Positions 817-9,965 of a stretch of 12,664 bases of DNA are shown piece by piece; position 1 is the first letter of the stretch, and every line of letters begins with the position of its first letter. The position numbers and the translations under genes were made by a program. This DNA comes from Pseudomonadota bacterium (GTDB taxonomy: Bacteria; Bdellovibrionota; FAC87; UBA2466): positions 1-12,664 of the forward strand of contig JAYUGC010000092.1 of NCBI GenBank assembly GCA_043767805.1, written 5' to 3'. The notes below the pieces were generated by a model, which did no database searches, was not told the origin of the DNA, and saw only the letters and a list, made by a program, of their open reading frames with translations.

Positions 817-3150
817 TCAGGGAGCGGAGCTCGCCTGCTCCCGCTGCCGACGGGCCAAAAACTCGGGAACCGTTTCCCCCGGAAGTCTCAGGCCTTGCCG
901 CTGGATGTTCGTGAGATGACCATCTACGAACGCTTTCTGCTCAGGCGTCATCGGTATCGTTTGCTCCGTCACCCACTCGGGAAGGACAACCGCGTAGGCG
1001 AGCCCTTCATTCTTGTCCGTGGCGGCGAGCACGGAGTCTCCTCCGCGCCCCGACGCGACTCGAGTCAGGAAAGGAAAATGACTTCGGGGGATGTCCTTCA
1101 TCTTGCCCGTAATCTTTCCTTGATAGCCGTCCCGCTTGAGAATCTCTTTTCCGGCGGCCTGAATGCCGTAATTGCCCTCGCCGCGCTGGATATTCACGAT
1201 GCGCGGATCGTCTTTACCAAGAATGCGCTCGAGCTCCGCTCTCGCCCGGGGGCCATCGGCGATAATGAGGTCGGGTGAGCTCTTTTGATTGAGCACCGCC
1301 GCGATCACTTTATCGCGATAAGTCTGAGTCTGGCTCATCACCTTGGCCCATTCGGTATCGGTCGCGCCGTCCATGCGGAAAGGCACCGTCCGAAGCACCA
1401 AGTAATCGTCTTTCACTCCCACGTCGTGCATCAGACCATTGAGGTACTGCCCGCGCGCACCCGACATGGCCATACCGGTGACGAACTCGTCAACGCCAAC
1501 AGGGTCGGCGAGGATGAGCACCTTGGGATTTTCCAGTCTACCGCGGTAGTGGCCAAAATCCTTAACGTCGGGATGGTTCTTCACGTTGAAGGCAGCGATG
1601 CCGTCCTTCTTCCAGGTTTTGCCGGGCTTCGGCGTGAAGATAGCTTTCAGATCGAGATTGTCTTTCATGAGATTCGCCATCTCGACCGAAGGCCCCGGAT
1701 CGAAATCGTAACGAGACTCTGGACCACGCGCCCGCGTGTTGAACTGCTCCTGAGGATCGATCTCGTCACTCGGCTTGCTGTGCCGGATGGCCTCTAGCGC
1801 TTTCATGTCGAACTCGGCCTTGCCCTTAATGCCATCGATGATGGCATAAGGCTTTCCAGACATTCGTATCGCATTCGACTCACCTTGCATGCGAGTGCCG
1901 GGAGTGCCGAAATGATAGTAAGCGGTGGAGAGGTCCGTTCTCCCGTACTCGAAGGGGTCTCCCGCCTCGAAATGATTCTTCTGACCGGGATCGGCTTCGA
2001 TATGCCACCCATCGGCGACATACTTTTGCAAAGGACTCAGCTGTTTCTGGACCACTTTCCCCGGATCCTTGCCTTCCCTTTTCATGAAGCCCAGGGCAGT
2101 GGGATGAGGAAAGGCGGGAACCAGAAGATGGTTTTCTATTTTGGTGCCGTCCGAAAGGGTGACCCCTTTTAACGAGACGGTCTTTTCCCCGTTGACCTTC
2201 ATCTCAGTCAGTTTATGCCCGCCGAGCTGCGCCGGATGGAGGATGCCGTTGCCGTAAGGTCCGCCTTTTGAAAAAACCATGCGGCTATAAAACCAATCCA
2301 CATTTTTGTCGAGCGCTTCAGTCGCGGCCAGGCGATCCGGGTCGAGTTTGTAATTGAGCTTACGGCCCAAGAACTCGCTGTATAGGTCCTGTCCTTCGGA
2401 CCCGAGAAGCACGCCGAAAGTGTTGTTGCCACCGGCGCTGACTTCTTTCATCTCGGGAACCTGGATGAACTTCATCTCGCGCTCGGATATCTTCGTCGGC
2501 ACCTTCACTCCGACACTTTTCAGAAACGTCGCCGTCGCATCCTGCGCGGCGCCGCCAAAATCCACGAGCATCCGCATCTCGGGATGCTGCTTGATCATGA
2601 TCTCGTAAAATCCTTTGTTCCATGCCGCATGGGGACCTTCATGGGTCATCGTCCAGAGATGATTGTCGACGATGGTCGTGCGACGAATCTCGCGCTTGCC
2701 ATCTTTCTCATAAATGTAAGGAGCGTCTCGAACGCCGTACTGACCGAAGATCGTATAGGGAAAGGCATTAAAGAAGCCGGCGCTCTCGTGCATCCCCAAG
2801 TAATTAACGATTTTCTGCGCGTCTCCGCCGAAGGCGGCCGTCGCCGTATGAAAGGACGACTCGGCTTTGTGAACGCCGTCCTGGCCCATGAAGAGCCCTT
2901 GTTGGCGGCCATCTGAGAGCCGGTAAAAAAGCGGACCAAAAGCCGCGCGAAATTTTTGCAGGCCCAGCATGAGCGGAGACATCGTGGGCAAAGGAGGCAA
3001 CGAGGCAATGTGGTCGATGAAATCGCGGCCGTTCTTGGTCTTCGGATCGGGACCATGATCGAACGGCTGCCTGAGTGCCGCGTAGTCACAGCCAAGGGAG
3101 ACTCGGCTTAGGAAAAAAACGAATGTGAAAGCGCGAAACTTCCAGCCCAC
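817..3150 (-). CDS. Putative exported protein with two tandem uracil-DNA glycosylase-like (UDG superfamily) repeats
   Basis: 777-aa ORF, GTG start with AGGGGG upstream. Leader MGWKFRAFTFVFFLSRVSLG followed by the only Cys. Repeat 1: FDHGP...FGPLFYR...LFMGQDG...FFNAFPY...MLVDFG...FPHPT. Repeat 2: FDPGP...HYRGRLENPKVLILADPVGVDEFVTGMAMSGARGQYLNGLMHDVGV...YLVLRTVP...LIIADG, which resembles the family-4 UDG N-terminal block. Confidence 0.7.
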   Translation of the reverse strand: MGWKFRAFTFVFFLSRVSLGCDYAALRQPFDHGPDPKTKNGRDFIDHIASLPPLPTMSPLMLGLQKFRAAFGPLFYRLSDGRQQGLFMGQDGVHKAESSFHTATAAFGGDAQKIVNYLGMHESAGFFNAFPYTIFGQYGVRDAPYIYEKDGKREIRRTTIVDNHLWTMTHEGPHAAWNKGFYEIMIKQHPEMRMLVDFGGAAQDATATFLKSVGVKVPTKISEREMKFIQVPEMKEVSAGGNNTFGVLLGSEGQDLYSEFLGRKLNYKLDPDRLAATEALDKNVDWFYSRMVFSKGGPYGNGILHPAQLGGHKLTEMKVNGEKTVSLKGVTLSDGTKIENHLLVPAFPHPTALGFMKREGKDPGKVVQKQLSPLQKYVADGWHIEADPGQKNHFEAGDPFEYGRTDLSTAYYHFGTPGTRMQGESNAIRMSGKPYAIIDGIKGKAEFDMKALEAIRHSKPSDEIDPQEQFNTRARGPESRYDFDPGPSVEMANLMKDNLDLKAIFTPKPGKTWKKDGIAAFNVKNHPDVKDFGHYRGRLENPKVLILADPVGVDEFVTGMAMSGARGQYLNGLMHDVGVKDDYLVLRTVPFRMDGATDTEWAKVMSQTQTYRDKVIAAVLNQKSSPDLIIADGPRARAELERILGKDDPRIVNIQRGEGNYGIQAAGKEILKRDGYQGKITGKMKDIPRSHFPFLTRVASGRGGDSVLAATDKNEGLAYAVVLPEWVTEQTIPMTPEQKAFVDGHLTNIQRQGLRLPGETVPEFLARRQREQASSAP

Positions 3151-3567: not shown

Positions 3568-3697
3568 GAAGAGCATTCGGATTCAGAAACTTTCAAAATT
3601 ATCGATTACGGGTGCTTGCTCACTGCGGGTGGGATGGGATATTCGGAATCCGAAATTAATCAACCAGGGACCGTTCCCCCGTTGGTGGAGTAGAGCC
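3568..3697 (+). mobile_element. ISL3-family right-end fragment (130 bp), copy 1
   Basis: 128/130 identical to 9080-9209. Encodes the transposase tail RAFGFRNFQNYRLRVLAHCG and ends in GTAGAGCC (reverse complement GGCTCTAC, typical ISL3 terminus). Confidence 0.9.
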
Positions 3698-5033: not shown

Positions 5034-7049
5034 ATGGCGCCCGTTTTCTCAAAGTTTCAAAACAAACTACTCGCGGCTTTCGCCCTTCTGGTCGCTCTGA
5101 TTATCCTGCCGGTACTTCTGTTTGTAAATGCGGCTATAGACCGGGCCAGTGAATCGCGCATTGAGGAGAGTCTGCGCACGGCCCAGGAGGTGTTTGCCAG
5201 CTTCCTGGACACCCGGCGGAAAGCCTACTCCGACAGTGCCGACATCCTCATCAATTCCCAGCCCTCTTTGAGGGCGCTGCTCGGCAGCTCCAACGACGAT
5301 GAGGAAAACCTGTTCGGCTCGGAAAATGAAGAGTCCGGTACCTCCGCGGGCCGCCAGGAGACGCACGATGCGCTATTTTCAACGGTGGAGGGCCTGGGGA
5401 TATTTCGTAATGCCGGCCTCTTTTTGATGACCGACGCCCGGGGTGTGTTGCTCTTTTCCAAAGCGGATCCGAAGGCCTTCGGGGTTAGTCTGGCCTCCCT
5501 GCCCATTGTGCGCCAGGGCCTGGAGGGAAAAGAGGGCCACACGCTCTGGGGCTCCGAGGATCCCGCCATTCGGCCCCAAGTGGCCCTTCCCAAAGCGAAC
5601 TCCCCGACCATTTACGAAGTGTTCTTCAAGCCGATTGCCTTTGGGGGACAGGTAAAGGGACTGCTCGCCATCGGTTTTCCCATTACTCTTTCCGAAATCG
5701 AACGCATTCGGGATATCACCCGTTCGGAAATTGCTTTTTTGTCCAAAGGCACCATCTACGGTAACTCCAGTGCGGTGCCGCTTCCCCTCGGCGGCCTGTC
5801 GGTCTTGAATCTGGTGCGGTTCGACCACGCCAGTGAAGCCTTCATCGGACTTCGTTCGGTTCTCAACGACAGCCTGGGTGAGCCGGCCGGGGCCTCGCTC
5901 ATTTACCGTTCGAAGACCCGGGAGGCCGCTCTCTTCCGTCGGCTCAAGGTGGTTCTGAATCTCATTGCGGCCCTGGCAATGCTGGGCGCCGTGCTCATTG
6001 CGCTTCCGCTGAGCCGCGGCGTTACGCGTTCGATCCGCGACCTGATCCGAGGCGCAAAAGCGGTGCGGGCCGGGGACCTGACAACCACGGTCACCGTGGC
6101 GTCAGCGGACGAATTTGCGCTTCTGGCCGACTCCTTCAACGAAATGACCCGGGGCCTTCGGGAAAAGGAACAGATTAAATCCACTTTCCGGCGCTACGTG
6201 AGTCCGAACGTGCTCAACGCGCTTTTGGCCGATGGCGCCGTGCCCAAATTGGGAGGGGACAGCCGCCGACTGACGATCTACTTTGCCGATATCGCCGGGT
6301 TCACCCGGATATCGGAGAGGCTTAAGCCCGAGGAGACCATCGAATTTTTGAATGACTATCTGTCGCGGGCTACACAGTGCATCGAGTCGGCCGGCGGAAT
6401 CGTCGATAAATACATCGGCGACGCGGTCATGGCGTACTGGCTGGCCACGGGGGATTCGCCCATGGACCGCGAGCAGGCCTGCCGCGCCGCTGGCAATCAT
6501 TCGGCCACACTCCTGGCTTTGAAGGAAAAGTGGGGAGGCCGCATCGGGCCCGAAGGGGTAGGGGTCCGCGTCGGGATTCATTCGGGGCAGGCGATCATGG
6601 GCAACATCGGCTGCGATTCGCGCATGGACTACACTTTGGTCGGAGACGACGTAAACACGGCGGCACGGCTCGAAAGTTTGAATAAAAGTTACGGCACCTC
6701 CATCCTGGTGACCGAGAGCGTGACGGCGGGGCTTCAGGCCAAGTTCCTCTTTCGCGAAGTGGACCAGGTTCGCCTGCAGGGAAAGGCCCACGTGGTTCGC
6801 GTTTTCGAGCTCATGAGCGAAAGAGAGGCCGCCACCACCGGGCAGATGGCGCGGGCCGAGCGGTTTTCCGGGGGTCTGGGGCTTTACCGGCAGCGGGAAT
6901 TCGAAAAAGCGCGCCGTTGCTTCGGGGATCTCGGCCGGGACTTTCCCGAGGACCGGGCGGCGCTCATTTTTGCCGACCGCTGCGCGCTCTACGCCACCGC
7001 CTCGCCGCCCGCCAAGTGGGACGGAGTCTTTCAGATGCAGACGAAATAA
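5034..7049 (+). CDS. Membrane-bound class III adenylate cyclase (TM - periplasmic sensor - TM - HAMP - cyclase - TPR-like tail)
   Basis: Two hydrophobic helices. HAMP (AKAVRAGDL...DEFALLADSFNEM). Cyclase motifs FADIAGFT, DKYIGDAVMA, GIHSG, DYTLVGDDVNTAARLE, with the Lys/Asp pair that indicates ATP specificity. C-terminal WDGV...K tail. Confidence 0.93.
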   Translation: MAPVFSKFQNKLLAAFALLVALIILPVLLFVNAAIDRASESRIEESLRTAQEVFASFLDTRRKAYSDSADILINSQPSLRALLGSSNDDEENLFGSENEESGTSAGRQETHDALFSTVEGLGIFRNAGLFLMTDARGVLLFSKADPKAFGVSLASLPIVRQGLEGKEGHTLWGSEDPAIRPQVALPKANSPTIYEVFFKPIAFGGQVKGLLAIGFPITLSEIERIRDITRSEIAFLSKGTIYGNSSAVPLPLGGLSVLNLVRFDHASEAFIGLRSVLNDSLGEPAGASLIYRSKTREAALFRRLKVVLNLIAALAMLGAVLIALPLSRGVTRSIRDLIRGAKAVRAGDLTTTVTVASADEFALLADSFNEMTRGLREKEQIKSTFRRYVSPNVLNALLADGAVPKLGGDSRRLTIYFADIAGFTRISERLKPEETIEFLNDYLSRATQCIESAGGIVDKYIGDAVMAYWLATGDSPMDREQACRAAGNHSATLLALKEKWGGRIGPEGVGVRVGIHSGQAIMGNIGCDSRMDYTLVGDDVNTAARLESLNKSYGTSILVTESVTAGLQAKFLFREVDQVRLQGKAHVVRVFELMSEREAATTGQMARAERFSGGLGLYRQREFEKARRCFGDLGRDFPEDRAALIFADRCALYATASPPAKWDGVFQMQTK

Positions 7050-7089
7050 CCATTGAGCCTTCTCCACGGCGTAAACTAGAATTCTCTCC

Positions 7090-8424
7090 GTGCAACGACA
7101 ATTATTACGCGCAGCGGTATTTCTTCTTTTTTTTACCGCCCTCGGCCCGGGGGCAATGGCCGGCGAAGACGATCTGTTCGGGGCCGGTCCCTCCGCGCTT
7201 GCGCTAAAAGACGACTGGAATCGAGCCGGCCTTCGGATCGTTCCCTCCGGAACGCTCGATTTGCGTTTCGTTCACGCCGGTACGGCCATCGGTTGGGAAT
7301 ATGGGGGACCGGGGCTTTCGCGCTATGGTTCCACCCCGCCGGGGGCGCCGGGCACGAGGGAATCCGGCGTCCGGGGTGTCACTTTCCGGATGCCCCAGAT
7401 CGGCCTGGATCTCGATTTTCTTTTGCAGGACACTCCTTTGCTCCACCTGCAGCTGGGCTATGACGATCACCCGGAGCTGACGGGGCGAGTGGGCTCCATC
7501 GGAGTCGTGAAGGCTTTCGCCCACCTTCCCACCCTCGGACCCATTGCGCTCAGAGCGGGGGTGATGATTCCACCGGTCTCTCTCGAACACCCGGGCCCCG
7601 CCTGGAGCACGCGCTATACGCTGACTCCCTCGGCCATCAATACCTGGGTCGGCGAGGAACTTCGAGTGGTCGGACTGGAGGGCTCGGGGGCAATGGCGTT
7701 TGGTAAGGGGATGCGCGGACGGGTGGTGGTGGGCCTCTTCTCGCACAACGATACGGCAGGCGCCATTCTGTCGTGGCGGGGCTGGGGGTTTCACGATTAT
7801 CAGGTCAAGCTGGGGGATCGTCTCCGAACCTCGGGGGACACCGATAGCGCGGTATTATCGCCGACCGTCAGCACGGCTCCCTTCGAGGAATTGGATGGCA
7901 GGCCCGGCGCCTATGCCAAATTGGGTGTCGACGTGGGCGACAGCCTGAAACTCGAGGTATTTGTCTCTCACAATTTCGCAAACCCCCGTGCATTTGAACA
8001 CGTTACGTTTGGGAAAGCTTACGGCTGGCGGACCACTTTCGTAAACGCGGCTGCCCAGTACCGCCCTCTTTTGGGGCTCACGTTCCTGGCTCAGGCGCTT
8101 TACGGAACGACCCTCATGGGCGCTTCCGCCGTCGACAACTCCTTTGCTTCCGCCTTTCTCCTCGCCTCCTACCAGTGGGGCCGCCACCGGTTGAGCTTTC
8201 GCTACGACTGGTTTCAGGTGCTGGATCGGGACGCCAACGCCGGTGATCTTAATGACCAGCGAGGCAACGCCCAGGTGGTGGCCTACTTTTTCTCCCTCGA
8301 CGAAAACCACACGCTGGGAGTGGAGTACCTCAGACCCGTGGCCACCCGGGTCGGCAATACCGGATTGGCCCGGGTGGACGCTTTTGACGATCTCGTTCAA
8401 GGGGCCTACCGGCTGAGTTTTTGA
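7090..8424 (+). CDS. Uncharacterised outer-membrane beta-barrel protein
   Basis: GTG start, signal peptide ending AMA, many amphipathic strands (HRLSFRYDWF, HTLGVEY), C-terminal QGAYRLSF. Starts 40 bp after the cyclase on the same strand. Confidence 0.8.
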   Translation: MQRQLLRAAVFLLFFTALGPGAMAGEDDLFGAGPSALALKDDWNRAGLRIVPSGTLDLRFVHAGTAIGWEYGGPGLSRYGSTPPGAPGTRESGVRGVTFRMPQIGLDLDFLLQDTPLLHLQLGYDDHPELTGRVGSIGVVKAFAHLPTLGPIALRAGVMIPPVSLEHPGPAWSTRYTLTPSAINTWVGEELRVVGLEGSGAMAFGKGMRGRVVVGLFSHNDTAGAILSWRGWGFHDYQVKLGDRLRTSGDTDSAVLSPTVSTAPFEELDGRPGAYAKLGVDVGDSLKLEVFVSHNFANPRAFEHVTFGKAYGWRTTFVNAAAQYRPLLGLTFLAQALYGTTLMGASAVDNSFASAFLLASYQWGRHRLSFRYDWFQVLDRDANAGDLNDQRGNAQVVAYFFSLDENHTLGVEYLRPVATRVGNTGLARVDAFDDLVQGAYRLSF

Positions 8425-8435
8425 GGGTGAAGGCG

Positions 8436-8555
8436 ATGGCACTGAAAGAGACGGATCTGGAGATAGTCCACCTGAAGGGCAGCGGGCCCGGTGGACAGAA
8501 CCGCAACAAGCGCCAGACCGGCATTCGCATTACCCACCTGTTATCCCACTCGTAG
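8436..8555 (+). pseudogene. GGQ-motif peptidyl-tRNA hydrolase (class I release-factor / ArfB-like domain), truncated
   Basis: Manual translation MALKETDLEIVHLKGSGPGGQNRNKRQTGIRITHL|LSHS* has the SGPGGQxxNK...IRITHL signature. Similarity stops at 8540, where PTG would normally follow. Not in the ORF track. Confidence 0.85.
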
Positions 8556-8580
8556 TTTTATCGTCGAGACCCGAATTAAT

Positions 8581-9171
8581 GTCATGGATCTTTCGGAAAC
8601 CTATCGCTCCATCGCCAAGAAACACTTCCCCGAAGCCATGATCGTAGCCGATAGGTTCCACGTCATTCGGCTCGTAAACCACAGTTTTCTAAAAACCTGG
8701 CAACAACTCGACCCCAACGGTCGCAAAAATCGTGGGCTACTAAGCTTGATGCGACGGCACGAAAAGAATCTCGATCCCGACCAAAAGCTCCGCCTAAAGC
8801 AGTATCTAAGCCATTGCCCCGCTCTCGAACGGGTCTATGAATTCAAACAAAAACTTTGCATGCTGCTGCTGACCAGACAGCGCCAAAAGACCGCTTTGAG
8901 GCCAGCAATCTACCAGTTGGTCGAAATGATCGAACAGCTCAAGCTGACCGCTTTCGAACCCCTTAGAACCCTGGGTCTGACTCTGGAAAGGTGGCAGGAA
9001 GAAATAGGCCGGATGCTCCGCTTCTCCAAAAGCAACGGCATCACAGAGGGATTCCACAACAAAATGGAAATGATCTCCCGAAGAGCATTCGGATTCAGAA
9101 ACTTTCAAAACTATCGATTACGGGTGCTTGCTCACTGCGGGTGGGATGGGATATTCGGAATCCGAAATTAA
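8581..9171 (+). pseudogene. ISL3-family transposase, C-terminal half only
   Basis: VMDLSETYRS, ADRFHV and SNGITEGFHNKMEMISRRAFGFRNFQNYRLR motifs. The N-terminal zinc-finger/HTH region and first catalytic Asp block are missing; the first ~30 aa of the track ORF 8491 are junction sequence. Confidence 0.9.
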
Positions 9172-9209
9172 CCAACCAGGGACCGTTCCCCCGTTGGTGG
9201 AGTAGAGCC
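8581..9209 (+). mobile_element. 5'-truncated ISL3 element with intact right end, copy 2 (left boundary approximate)
   Basis: Transposase fragment plus 38 bp ending in GTAGAGCC. The right end is defined by where identity with 3568-3697 stops. Visibly more AT-rich than flanking genes. Confidence 0.88.
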
Positions 9210-9214
9210 AAGAA

Positions 9215-9291
9215 TGGTCGGGCTGGTCAGATTTGAACTGACGACCTCTTCGTCCCGAACGAAGCGCGCTAGCCAACTGCGCTACAGCCCG
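9215..9291 (-). tRNA. tRNA-Pro (anticodon CGG)
   Basis: 77 nt, CGGGCTGTAGCGCAGTTGGCTAGCGCGCTTCGTTCGGGACGAAGAGGTCGTCAGTTCAAATCTGACCAGCCCGACCA. Acceptor CGGGCTG/CAGCCCG, anticodon arm CTTCG-TTCGGGA-CGAAG, T loop TTCAAAT, encoded CCA. Confidence 0.97.
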
Positions 9292-9965
9292 TCTTGGCAA
9301 ACCAGAAGCTTGGGATCCGCGGCCCGAGAAAAACTCAGTTCCGCTTCGGCTTTGAGTGACCTCAAAGTCGCTTCCAAACCTCGTCGTATCGACTCGAACG
9401 CTTCGGGCGTTACGTCTTTCGGAACCGTTACCGGAACTCCATAGACAATCACGCACTTAGCGAACGGATTCGGAAGGTAACACCGATTCCAAGCCCTTTT
9501 AAAGACAAATCTGCGGCTCGCTGCCGCACCGCCCGGAATAATCGGCAATCCGGTTTCCTGGGCGAGTTTCAAAATCCCTGGCTTCACCTCATAGATGGGA
9601 CCGCGCGGTCCATCCACCGCGAGTGAGGCTTCGCGTCCGCTCCCGGAAACCGCGTCTATCAACCCTTTCAGGCCAGCGGCGCCTCCTTTGCTCGAGGATC
9701 CACGCACCACGAAAAAGCCCAAGGCCTCGAGGAGCCGCTTCATCAACTCGCCGTCCCGGCTTCGGCTAGCCATCACCGCCATGTCGCCATCGCGGTAAGC
9801 GCCGAGGAGAAGTAGTTCGTCCCCATGCCAATGCGCGTAAAGAGACGGACGAAGGGCGGGGCGGCGCACATGCGCGTAGCGGTACGTGAGGCTAAGGAGC
9901 CGATAGGCCCAATGCAGCACAAAAACGGACAGGGTCTCTTTGATTCGCCGAAAAAATTCCACCAA
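9282..9965 (-). CDS. DUF374 / lysophospholipid acyltransferase-family protein
   Basis: Motifs HWHG, MASRSRDGE, VRGSSSKGG, AVDGPRGP, W..CYLPNPF. The true start may be GTG at 9962 (GAGG 7 nt upstream). Confidence 0.88.
   Translation of the reverse strand: MVEFFRRIKETLSVFVLHWAYRLLSLTYRYAHVRRPALRPSLYAHWHGDELLLLGAYRDGDMAVMASRSRDGELMKRLLEALGFFVVRGSSSKGGAAGLKGLIDAVSGSGREASLAVDGPRGPIYEVKPGILKLAQETGLPIIPGGAAASRRFVFKRAWNRCYLPNPFAKCVIVYGVPVTVPKDVTPEAFESIRRGLEATLRSLKAEAELSFSRAADPKLLVCQDGL

Follow-up and report, generated by a model that had tools for sequence, protein, structure and literature searches.

The window analysed here is a 12,664-nt stretch of DNA (contig JAYUGC010000092.1 of GenBank assembly GCA_043767805.1) from a member of the Bdellovibrionota, a phylum in which predators are well known. 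Its minus strand carries, at positions 817-3150, an open reading frame (ORF) of 777 amino acids (aa) plus a stop codon (817-819), which had originally been predicted to encode an apparently exported protein with a DNA-glycosylase fold. Profiles, alignments and the N-termini of homologues indicate that the product contains two tandem units of the uracil-DNA glycosylase (UDG) superfamily, related to BdiUng (Blr0248) of Bradyrhizobium diazoefficiens, and that it is very probably exported. All parts of the gene described below lie on the minus strand.

The ORF is a genuine gene and not a chance frame, as judged from its relatives: a profile search of 1.84 billion representative sequences returned 335 relatives at E ≤ 0.001, 128 of them at E ≤ 1e-30, and 12 proteins, one of which is the window's own copy, are full-length homologues at 38-50% identity. 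Members of the relatives' clusters carry just the name 'hypothetical protein'. The gene represents the long form of the family and occurs in single copy in its own genome. The sequencing runs listed as containing this DNA belong to one sediment-metagenome study, which may be its source, and no RNA run is among them. Its start codon is a GTG at 3150, with GGGGG ending 6 nt upstream; because just three further codons are open upstream of this GTG (an open frame of 780 aa), a longer N-terminus is ruled out. The next methionine is M57, and a start there would remove residues that are conserved in the family alignment. The mature protein is basic (isoelectric point 8.45; family median 8.79).

Two tandem units related to BdiUng

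Across 53 homologues, the Pfam UDG model PF03167 matches 36 at E ≤ 0.01 and reaches its gathering score of 24.3 bits in 28; the best stretch lies in the N-terminal unit (unit 1) in 22 homologues and in the C-terminal unit (unit 2) in 14. When a profile of the whole family was compared with 177,635 PDB sequences, 5gn2 (BdiUng/Blr0248) alone was convincing (E 5.9e-6), the sole other match having an E of 0.68. The profile of unit 1 (A3, aa 28-362) matched 5gn2 at E 7.4e-10, with query positions 37-116 pairing with chain residues 29-107, and that of unit 2 (A5, aa 529-777) matched the same region of the chain at E 1.6e-5. This similarity is limited to about 80-110 residues per unit. The nearest ESM Atlas clusters are UDG-superfamily clusters of the Bdellovibrionota. 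Neither the whole-family profile nor that of unit 1 matched a family-1 enzyme in the PDB at E ≤ 10; when hhalign compares the family with 20 Ung sequences taken from genomes of the phylum, motif A is paired (probability 33.6%, E 4.4e-4). A Pfam CSLinker match at aa 763-777 (E 0.01, below cut-off) was treated as noise. The UDG-like motifs of the original prediction are real and more extensive than first noted, comprising GQDGVH, N128 and a His-Pro pair in unit 1 and HYRG and ADP in unit 2, and its picture of an atypically long, multi-domain member of the superfamily agrees with the Pfam matches and with both unit profiles.

The two units also resemble each other. Within an alignment of 69 sequences (A2), hhalign matches aa 25-215 to aa 476-660 with a probability of 98.2% (E 6.2e-14). 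The lead-in motif FDHGPDP of unit 1 (3043-3063) pairs with FDPGPS before the core of unit 2 (1687-1704), F-Y-R with H-Y-R-G (HYRG, 1540-1551), a strand plus GQD with a strand plus ADP (aa 548-550, 1501-1509), N128 with R587, and FGGAA with ADG. A comparison of aa 28-362 with aa 529-777 gave no match (probability 2.1%), because the lead-in of unit 2 falls outside this cut; between the two tails the alignment is weak (17.7%). Since both unit profiles match 5gn2 and the units match each other, the protein is, by alignment, an old tandem duplication of a BdiUng-like unit.

The core of unit 1 consists of aa ~60-225 and aa 335-360. Its first part (aa 60-225, 2476-2973), delimited by the match of profile A3 to 5gn2 and by conservation, contains GQDGVH (aa 89-94, 2869-2886), F107 and N128 (2767-2769). 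Its second part (2071-2148) comprises the last strand and a conserved motif-B-like FPHPTALG, with His349-Pro350 at 2101-2106, and is kept in the short form of the family, whose members (~640-890 aa) match in two stretches at E of about 1e-18 to 1e-40. Between the third strand/helix and the last strand sits an insert of ~109 aa (aa 226-334, 2149-2475) that is specific to the long form: occupancy is 0.96-0.98 in 48 long-form sequences and mostly 0.2-0.3 (0.50 in one 15-residue bin) in 21 short-form sequences. The loops that are best conserved in the long form, AGGNN.F and GG...NG...AQLGG, both near-invariant, lie in this insert. Its only PDB matches are weak ones (E 0.3-0.66) to the N-terminal half of the phosphate-binding protein PstS, and it may be a phosphate-binding module, a lead taken from matches that are not significant. 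In the same non-significant pairing, AGGNNEFP aligns with GAGATFP and NGLLHPAQLGG with GLFQFPTVIGG. The core is followed by the tail of unit 1 (aa 361-476, 1723-2070), recognised by GW.I..DPG, YGR.DI and FGTP..R, which are conserved in profile A4; that profile found no PDB match, Pfam had no match to the tail, and an ESM Atlas search of aa 205-476 gave no usable match.

Unit 1 possesses the acid, the base-reading Asn and the motif B His that mark the UDG superfamily, the His being placed by its motif and by its retention in short forms. Among 69 members, G89 is kept in 69, Q90 in 67, N128 in 69, H349 in 66 and P350 in 68, and position 91 is acidic in 68 (D in 49, E in 19). D91 and N128 align with D57 and N94 of BdiUng, which together with H168 are described as its Ung-like catalytic residues, D57 lying in GQDPA (PMC5449639). 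The family-1 signature GQDPYH, with its thymine-excluding Tyr, is absent: the window protein has GQDGVH, and position 93, which corresponds to the Tyr, is T in 44, A in 18 and V in 4 of the 69 members, with Tyr never among the top residues. BdiUng likewise has a small residue here, and A59 in place of the GQDPY Tyr is given as the explanation for its excision of 5-hydroxymethyluracil (5hmU) and xanthine; the parts of the published account used here further describe a dimer that prefers single-stranded DNA, excises U, 5hmU and xanthine, and requires at least pNUNN (PMC5449639). H349 and P350 fall within an HP[STG]xLS motif that resembles HPSPLS of Ung, with L353, at the intercalating-Leu position, in 42 of 69. 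In the short forms H349 is retained in 18 of 21 and P350 in 20 of 21, directly after the core. The assignment of His349 as the motif B His is likely but unproven.

Unit 2 (aa 477-777, 820-1722) is delimited by hhalign, by profile A5 against 5gn2, by the Pfam UDG match at aa 539-636 and by conservation. It retains D549 (67/69) together with R536-G537, G564 and G567, and P590 is invariant (69/69). The position of the Asn is occupied by Lys or Arg in 57 of 69, and by R587 (1390-1392) in the window protein, while Arg566 (41/69; 1453-1455) stands where BdiUng has the pocket residue A73. The weak alignment of the tails (17.7%) suggests that unit 2 has no motif B His; a further landmark of this tail is IPRSH (1078-1092; all landmark coordinates were checked). 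The tail of unit 2 is unusually divergent in the window protein, which deviates at T702 and R706 as well as at the Trp position discussed below. Unit 2 is probably a degenerate or re-purposed domain, and because BdiUng is a homodimer, a fused pair of a catalytic and a pseudo-catalytic unit is the natural reading.

A loss of catalysis in both units has to be weighed against such a pair. The protein would then be a non-catalytic exported DNA binder, binding tightly as UdgX does or serving as an anchor for extracellular or prey DNA. Such a role would suit a unit 2 without the Asn and probably without the His, the basic character of the protein and its low Pfam score. It leaves the retention of the acid, the Asn and the His-Pro of unit 1 in 66-69 of 69 members, across about 22-50% identity, hard to explain without catalysis, and no UdgX-type model matched (NCBIfam 0). 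We regard a pure binder as improbable, and retain a catalytic unit 1 joined to a pseudo-catalytic unit 2.

Export of the family

The N-terminus reads (M/V)-GWKFRAFTFVFFLSRVSLG followed by CDY, with K4 and R6 preceding a short hydrophobic stretch, AFTFVFFL. These first 20 residues (3091-3150) form a probable Sec signal peptide, with cleavage probably after G20: by inspection the leader is basic, then hydrophobic, then small at -3/-1, where S18 and G20 stand ahead of C21, and this arrangement is conserved among homologues. As the original prediction had it, a leader of 20 aa, basic and then hydrophobic, precedes the only Cys of the 777-aa protein. A best 12-residue Kyte-Doolittle mean of at least 1.5 was taken as the criterion for a leader in 78 distinct full-length sequences of 640-970 aa. 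The window protein scores 1.70, and 72 of the 78 have a hydrophobic leader; the other six all begin within the conserved body and are, from where they begin, truncated calls.

A lipobox follows the consensus [LVI][ASTVI][GAS]C after an uncharged hydrophobic region. A regular expression found a lipobox-like Cys in 14 of the 72 leader-bearing homologues; in 2 of these the Cys lies within the hydrophobic stretch, leaving about 12 convincing lipoboxes. A clear lipobox requires translocation, and as some members have one, the bulk of the protein would lie outside the cytoplasm. Judged from these leaders, export is a trait of the whole family, and the window protein is very probably exported, by a route that would be Sec. 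In the window protein itself the sequence is V-S-L-G-C, and its Cys is kept, as C[DRP]Y, only in the three closest homologues (P0003-P0005), at a variable distance from the leader and outside a lipobox context; in P0004 it is 30 aa from the start, well past the leader. A lipobox is unlikely because of the Ser at -3, R16 five residues upstream of the Cys within the hydrophobic region, and this varying distance. SLG-C had been offered as either a non-canonical lipobox or a signal peptidase I site; the lipoprotein reading was rejected, and cleavage after G20 remains the probable event. C21 (3088-3090), as the sole Cys, would lie in the first residue or residues of the mature protein and is probably not lipidated.

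These data also bear on the idea of an ordinary cytoplasmic or membrane-tethered repair UDG, in which the hydrophobic N-terminus would be an anchor or a mis-called start. The leader is weak, with R16 inside it, and the start is a GTG, as this idea would expect. Yet no alternative upstream N-terminus is available, an M57 start loses conserved residues, about 12 homologues have a clear lipobox that requires translocation, and the genome already has a canonical Ung. We consider a repair enzyme of this kind very unlikely, and the original proviso, that homologues might start at a downstream Met without a leader, is not borne out, as leaders are kept.

The canonical Ung of the genome (L055) is leaderless and matches its model at E 1.4e-88; the genome further encodes a fusion protein of the UdgX family and a short ORF that resembles family 4 (L056). 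The fusion (G000:C133; L054:1483-2820, minus strand) is a protein of 445 aa that joins a TIGR03915 'putative DNA repair protein' domain to a UdgX-family uracil-DNA-binding domain. Because these three genes are present, the exported protein appears surplus to genome repair, and a non-repair, accessory role is plausible.

Distribution, neighbours and an exported amidohydrolase

A pattern scan of one genome per species recovered 52 loci, 46 of them labelled as Bdellovibrionota lineages (Bacteriovoracaceae, Halobacteriovoraceae, Pseudobdellovibrio(naceae), Bdellovibrio sp., Oligoflexales/Oligoflexia, Peredibacter sp. HCB2-198 and others). The remaining six have older or vaguer labels, one of them Flavobacteriaceae. 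In a quick tree with midpoint root and support from the Shimodaira-Hasegawa-like approximate likelihood ratio test only, the oddly labelled sequences fall within Bdellovibrionota clades, and the window protein groups with P0003-P0005 (support 100) and then with a Pseudobdellovibrionaceae sequence (96). The UDG-like protein of the locus labelled Flavobacteriaceae (L036) is sister to that of L012 (Bacteriovoracaceae), with branch lengths of 0.25 each; the probable explanation is mis-binning of the contig, not gene transfer. Of 401 genomes sampled evenly across the window's phylum, 79 have the family (70 of 336 of good quality). One of 33 other genomes of the window's own family has a UDG-like gene, and the one other genome of its genus has none.

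At 50 homologue loci the commonest neighbour recurs in 11, and the surrounding genes have housekeeping roles (DEAD helicase, ABC-F, Lon, ClpP, AhpC). In a clade labelled Pseudobdellovibrio/Bdellovibrio, a gene for an S13 peptidase (D-Ala-D-Ala carboxypeptidase/endopeptidase) lies directly downstream of the UDG-like gene at 7 of the 50 loci (L019, L026, L029 and L032, at about 180-480 nt, L010, L013 and one more). In Bdellovibrio, prey walls are the target of secreted PBP4-type enzymes; the S13 synteny may reflect only close kinship.

Within the window, the gene lies beside the scar of an insertion sequence (IS). A direct repeat of 130 nt, whose copies at 3568-3697 and 9080-9209 are 98% identical, corresponds to the 3' end of an ISL3 element. 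The copy at 9080-9209 ends a 5'-truncated ISL3 transposase gene (8491-9171, plus strand), which matches only positions 183-370 of the ISL3 model and abuts the 3' end of a tRNA-Pro(cgg) gene (9215-9291, minus strand). The copy at 3568-3697 stands alone as a remnant and lies 418 nt upstream of the UDG-like gene. A cupredoxin-like protein, a HAMP-adenylate cyclase and an unknown ORF of 444 aa are encoded in the 5.4 kb that separate the repeats. None of the 12 neighbouring ORFs of the window recurs beside homologues, except for cyclase-like matches at 2 loci. The genome of the same genus (G171) has only two short DNA stretches in common with the window, so that no empty-site comparison was possible. 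On the other side of the gene, an element of ~80 nt at 545-629, within a doubtful ORF (451-795), occurs once in its own genome and has 13 matches (74-88% identity) in a genome of the same family (G125); it is not a tRNA, matches no Rfam family, and is possibly a small dispersed repeat of the miniature inverted-repeat transposable element or repetitive extragenic palindromic type. The original prediction saw in the mobile, scarred neighbourhood a fit to an accessory role. The scar beside the gene and the patchy distribution agree with this; the family itself is not mobile, its 50 loci lying among housekeeping genes with no conserved neighbour.

The same setting was originally linked to incoming phage DNA. 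In a defence of the Brig1 kind, the protein would be an anti-phage or anti-foreign-DNA glycosylase acting on modified or uracil-containing phage DNA. UDG-superfamily glycosylases can indeed be defence genes, as reported for Brig1 (PMC11078745), a small residue at the Tyr position would admit 5-substituted pyrimidines, and the distribution is patchy, with an IS scar beside the gene. Export, however, separates the protein from injected phage DNA. There is no PADLOC match, no PHROG match at E ≤ 0.1 (one at E 0.13) and no viral-contig relative by the two patterns used, and the neighbours in the window and at the 50 loci are housekeeping or signalling genes, not defence islands. This part of the original prediction is set aside as highly improbable; its broader claim, of a UDG-fold enzyme acting on foreign nucleic acid or nucleotides, is borne out as to export and UDG nature, the substrate being a matter of conjecture.

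A possible functional partner is found beside the short form. In the phylum sample, the long form (E ≤ 1e-95) is present in 38 genomes and the short form in 42, with both in one. An amidohydrolase gene neighbours the UDG-like gene at 12 of 20 short-form loci (6 of 9 families), often adjacent and on the same strand, as in L085, where the UDG-like gene lies at 6038-8104 and the amidohydrolase at 8249-9910; the same amidohydrolase cluster adjoins 4 of the 50 long-form loci. By profile (E ≤ 1e-40) the amidohydrolase occurs in 43 of the 401 genomes, 42 of which also carry the UDG-like family, and it is present in 39 of 42 short-form genomes versus 3 of 37 long-only genomes. In 27 of the 42 genomes that carry both, the genes share a contig and are no more than 8 kb apart. 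A Fisher p of 1e-33 for this co-occurrence overstates the case, since kinship makes the genomes non-independent; still, many families show the pattern.

The amidohydrolases bear leaders in 14 of 15 cases and keep the metal ligands HxH, H269, H301 and D352 together with an HLAEG motif. Their nearest solved relatives are methylthioadenosine/S-adenosylhomocysteine deaminase (4f0r, E 2.3e-18), atrazine chlorohydrolase, guanine deaminase and 8-oxoguanine deaminase, the nearest PDB entries being 4f0r, 6ohb and 7ww2; their NCBIfam scores are all far below the cut-offs. Ahead of the Pfam domain is a novel, variable N-terminal extension of, very roughly, 50-400 aa, estimated from the domain starts. Examples, all on the minus strand, are L085:8249-9910, L095:8075-9643, L103:3343-4920, L086:2177-4288 and L029:4457-6625. 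Short form and amidohydrolase look like an undescribed two-gene module, and their coupling suggests an extracytoplasmic nucleobase-processing context for the UDG-like family in about half of the carrier genomes.

This context would also suit a periplasmic N-glycoside hydrolase of nucleotides, nucleosides or short oligonucleotides, serving salvage or nitrogen scavenging and, in the short-form clade, feeding bases to the exported deaminase. The short subfamily co-occurs with and adjoins an exported amidohydrolase whose relatives deaminate free bases or nucleosides, these amidohydrolases bear leaders too, and no DNA-processing neighbour was found at the 50 homologue loci. Against small substrates, the characterised UDG-superfamily members met in the literature all act on DNA, and BdiUng, by the account cited above, needs at least pNUNN (PMC5449639). 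The long form, moreover, mostly lacks the amidohydrolase, and the mature protein is basic, as nucleic-acid binders are. Salvage from small molecules is unlikely on these grounds, though it is the chief competitor of an enzyme that acts on DNA.

Proposed activity and comparison with known systems

Taking these lines together, the protein would be an extracytoplasmic base-excising glycosylase that acts on prey or environmental DNA, with unit 2 as a non-catalytic partner; we give this reading a probability of about one half. It would be a Sec-exported enzyme, periplasmic or secreted, built of two tandem, anciently duplicated units of the BdiUng/Blr0248-type UDG fold. The predicted catalytic set of unit 1 is like that of family 1 and BdiUng: a GQD loop to activate water, a small residue at the Tyr position of Ung, a pocket Phe, the base-reading Asn and a His-Pro motif B. 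Unit 1 would most likely hydrolyse the N-glycosidic bond of U, of 5-substituted U, or of xanthine- or hypoxanthine-type bases in DNA. The DNA would probably be single-stranded or nicked and met outside the cytoplasm, as prey DNA during predation or as environmental DNA, and the products would be free bases and abasic, easily broken DNA. Unit 2 would most likely be non-catalytic, an intramolecular stand-in for the second BdiUng subunit and/or a module that binds the backbone. The purpose would be digestion, salvage or killing, and not repair.

A more specific and distinctly tentative version is an exported base-stripping enzyme that digests, disarms or 'cleans' prey or environmental DNA. Here the short form and the exported deaminase would carry out two steps, in either order, and the long form would be made independent of a partner by its ~109-aa insert.

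Several observations weigh against the proposed glycosylase. By itself, the window protein matches PF03167 only at aa 539-636, with an E of 0.085 and 13.4 bits, below the 24.3 cut-off, and it matches no NCBIfam family at E ≤ 1. The pairing of motif B with HPSPLS of Ung is a weak, sub-optimal hhalign match (probability 6.8%), and a weak second HMMER stretch (4.8 bits) places the H168 region of BdiUng near IQVPE instead. In unit 2, W699 of the R.W.GTSGD motif, kept in 62 of 69 members, is Ala in the window protein (1054-1056). The fold, pocket and packing of the two units are predictions from sequence. As to export, the signal peptide was judged by a rule of thumb, from inspection and conservation; its hydrophobic region is short and interrupted by R16, and only one of the leader-bearing homologues scores below its 1.70. 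No conserved DNA-related neighbour, such as a nuclease or AP endonuclease, was seen at the 50 homologue loci. The amidohydrolase was not found in the window's genome (by profile at E ≤ 1e-40 and with one member at E ≤ 1e-5), and its clade acts on free bases or nucleosides, which would suit a small-molecule substrate no less than DNA.

Should the more specific, tentative version hold, the protein would be the first DNA glycosylase to act beyond the cytoplasm of its producer. To our knowledge, the characterised members of the UDG superfamily met in the literature are intracellular enzymes of DNA repair or defence, and we found no paper on an exported member or on this family. With an active protein, base-excision chemistry would reach as far as the cell envelope or prey, and the way in which predatory bacteria process prey nucleic acid could be studied on a testable enzyme; nature would also have supplied an example of a homodimeric glycosylase that became a fusion of a catalytic and a pseudo-catalytic unit. 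An extracytoplasmic nucleobase pathway, so far undescribed, is suggested by the link between the sister subfamily and an exported deaminase-like enzyme. This amidohydrolase partner was absent at the search thresholds from the window's genome and found in just 3 of the 37 long-only genomes.

Among known systems, Brig1 is alike in being a UDG-fold enzyme put to a use other than repair, on foreign DNA, with a pocket enlarged next to C5; as portrayed in the parts of the source used here, it differs in being cytoplasmic, single-domain and set in a defence context (PMC11078745), whereas the window protein appears to be exported and has no PADLOC match. Family-1 Ung, with GQDPY(H) and HPSPLS, is resembled in both motifs by the family consensus GQD[GA][TA]H and HP[STG]xLS. 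The window family has Val, Thr or Ala for the Tyr, however, and the window protein is much larger, duplicated and very probably exported; it matches no ung equivalog model (TIGR00628 / NF0035xx), unlike the true Ung of the same genome.

BdiUng/Blr0248 (PDB 5GN2, 5GN3, 5GNW, 5GRK) is the only convincing solved relative of both units. In both, motif A is a GQD motif in which a small residue stands in for the Tyr, and the two align at the lead-in FR..GP..(H/W/Y)R, at the Asp and at the Asn. BdiUng functions as a dimer (PMC5449639), and the window protein consists of two fused units. The differences are equally plain. BdiUng is a single-domain homodimer of 272 aa for which the parts of the account used here report no leader (PMC5449639), whereas the window protein has a leader, a tandem fusion, the ~109-aa insert and tails of 116 aa and ~85 aa. 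Unit 1 of the window family has, by sequence, an HP[STG]xLS motif B with Leu in 42 of 69 members, where BdiUng has an extended polar protrusion instead and no intercalating Leu (PMC5449639), and unit 2 has Lys or Arg in place of the Asn. The similarity to the BdiUng class is significant, but the form of a single-domain, leaderless homodimer of ~270 aa is not shared. On these comparisons, the protein is a member of the UDG superfamily whose nearest class is that of BdiUng, from which it departs by duplication, by elaboration and, very probably, by export.

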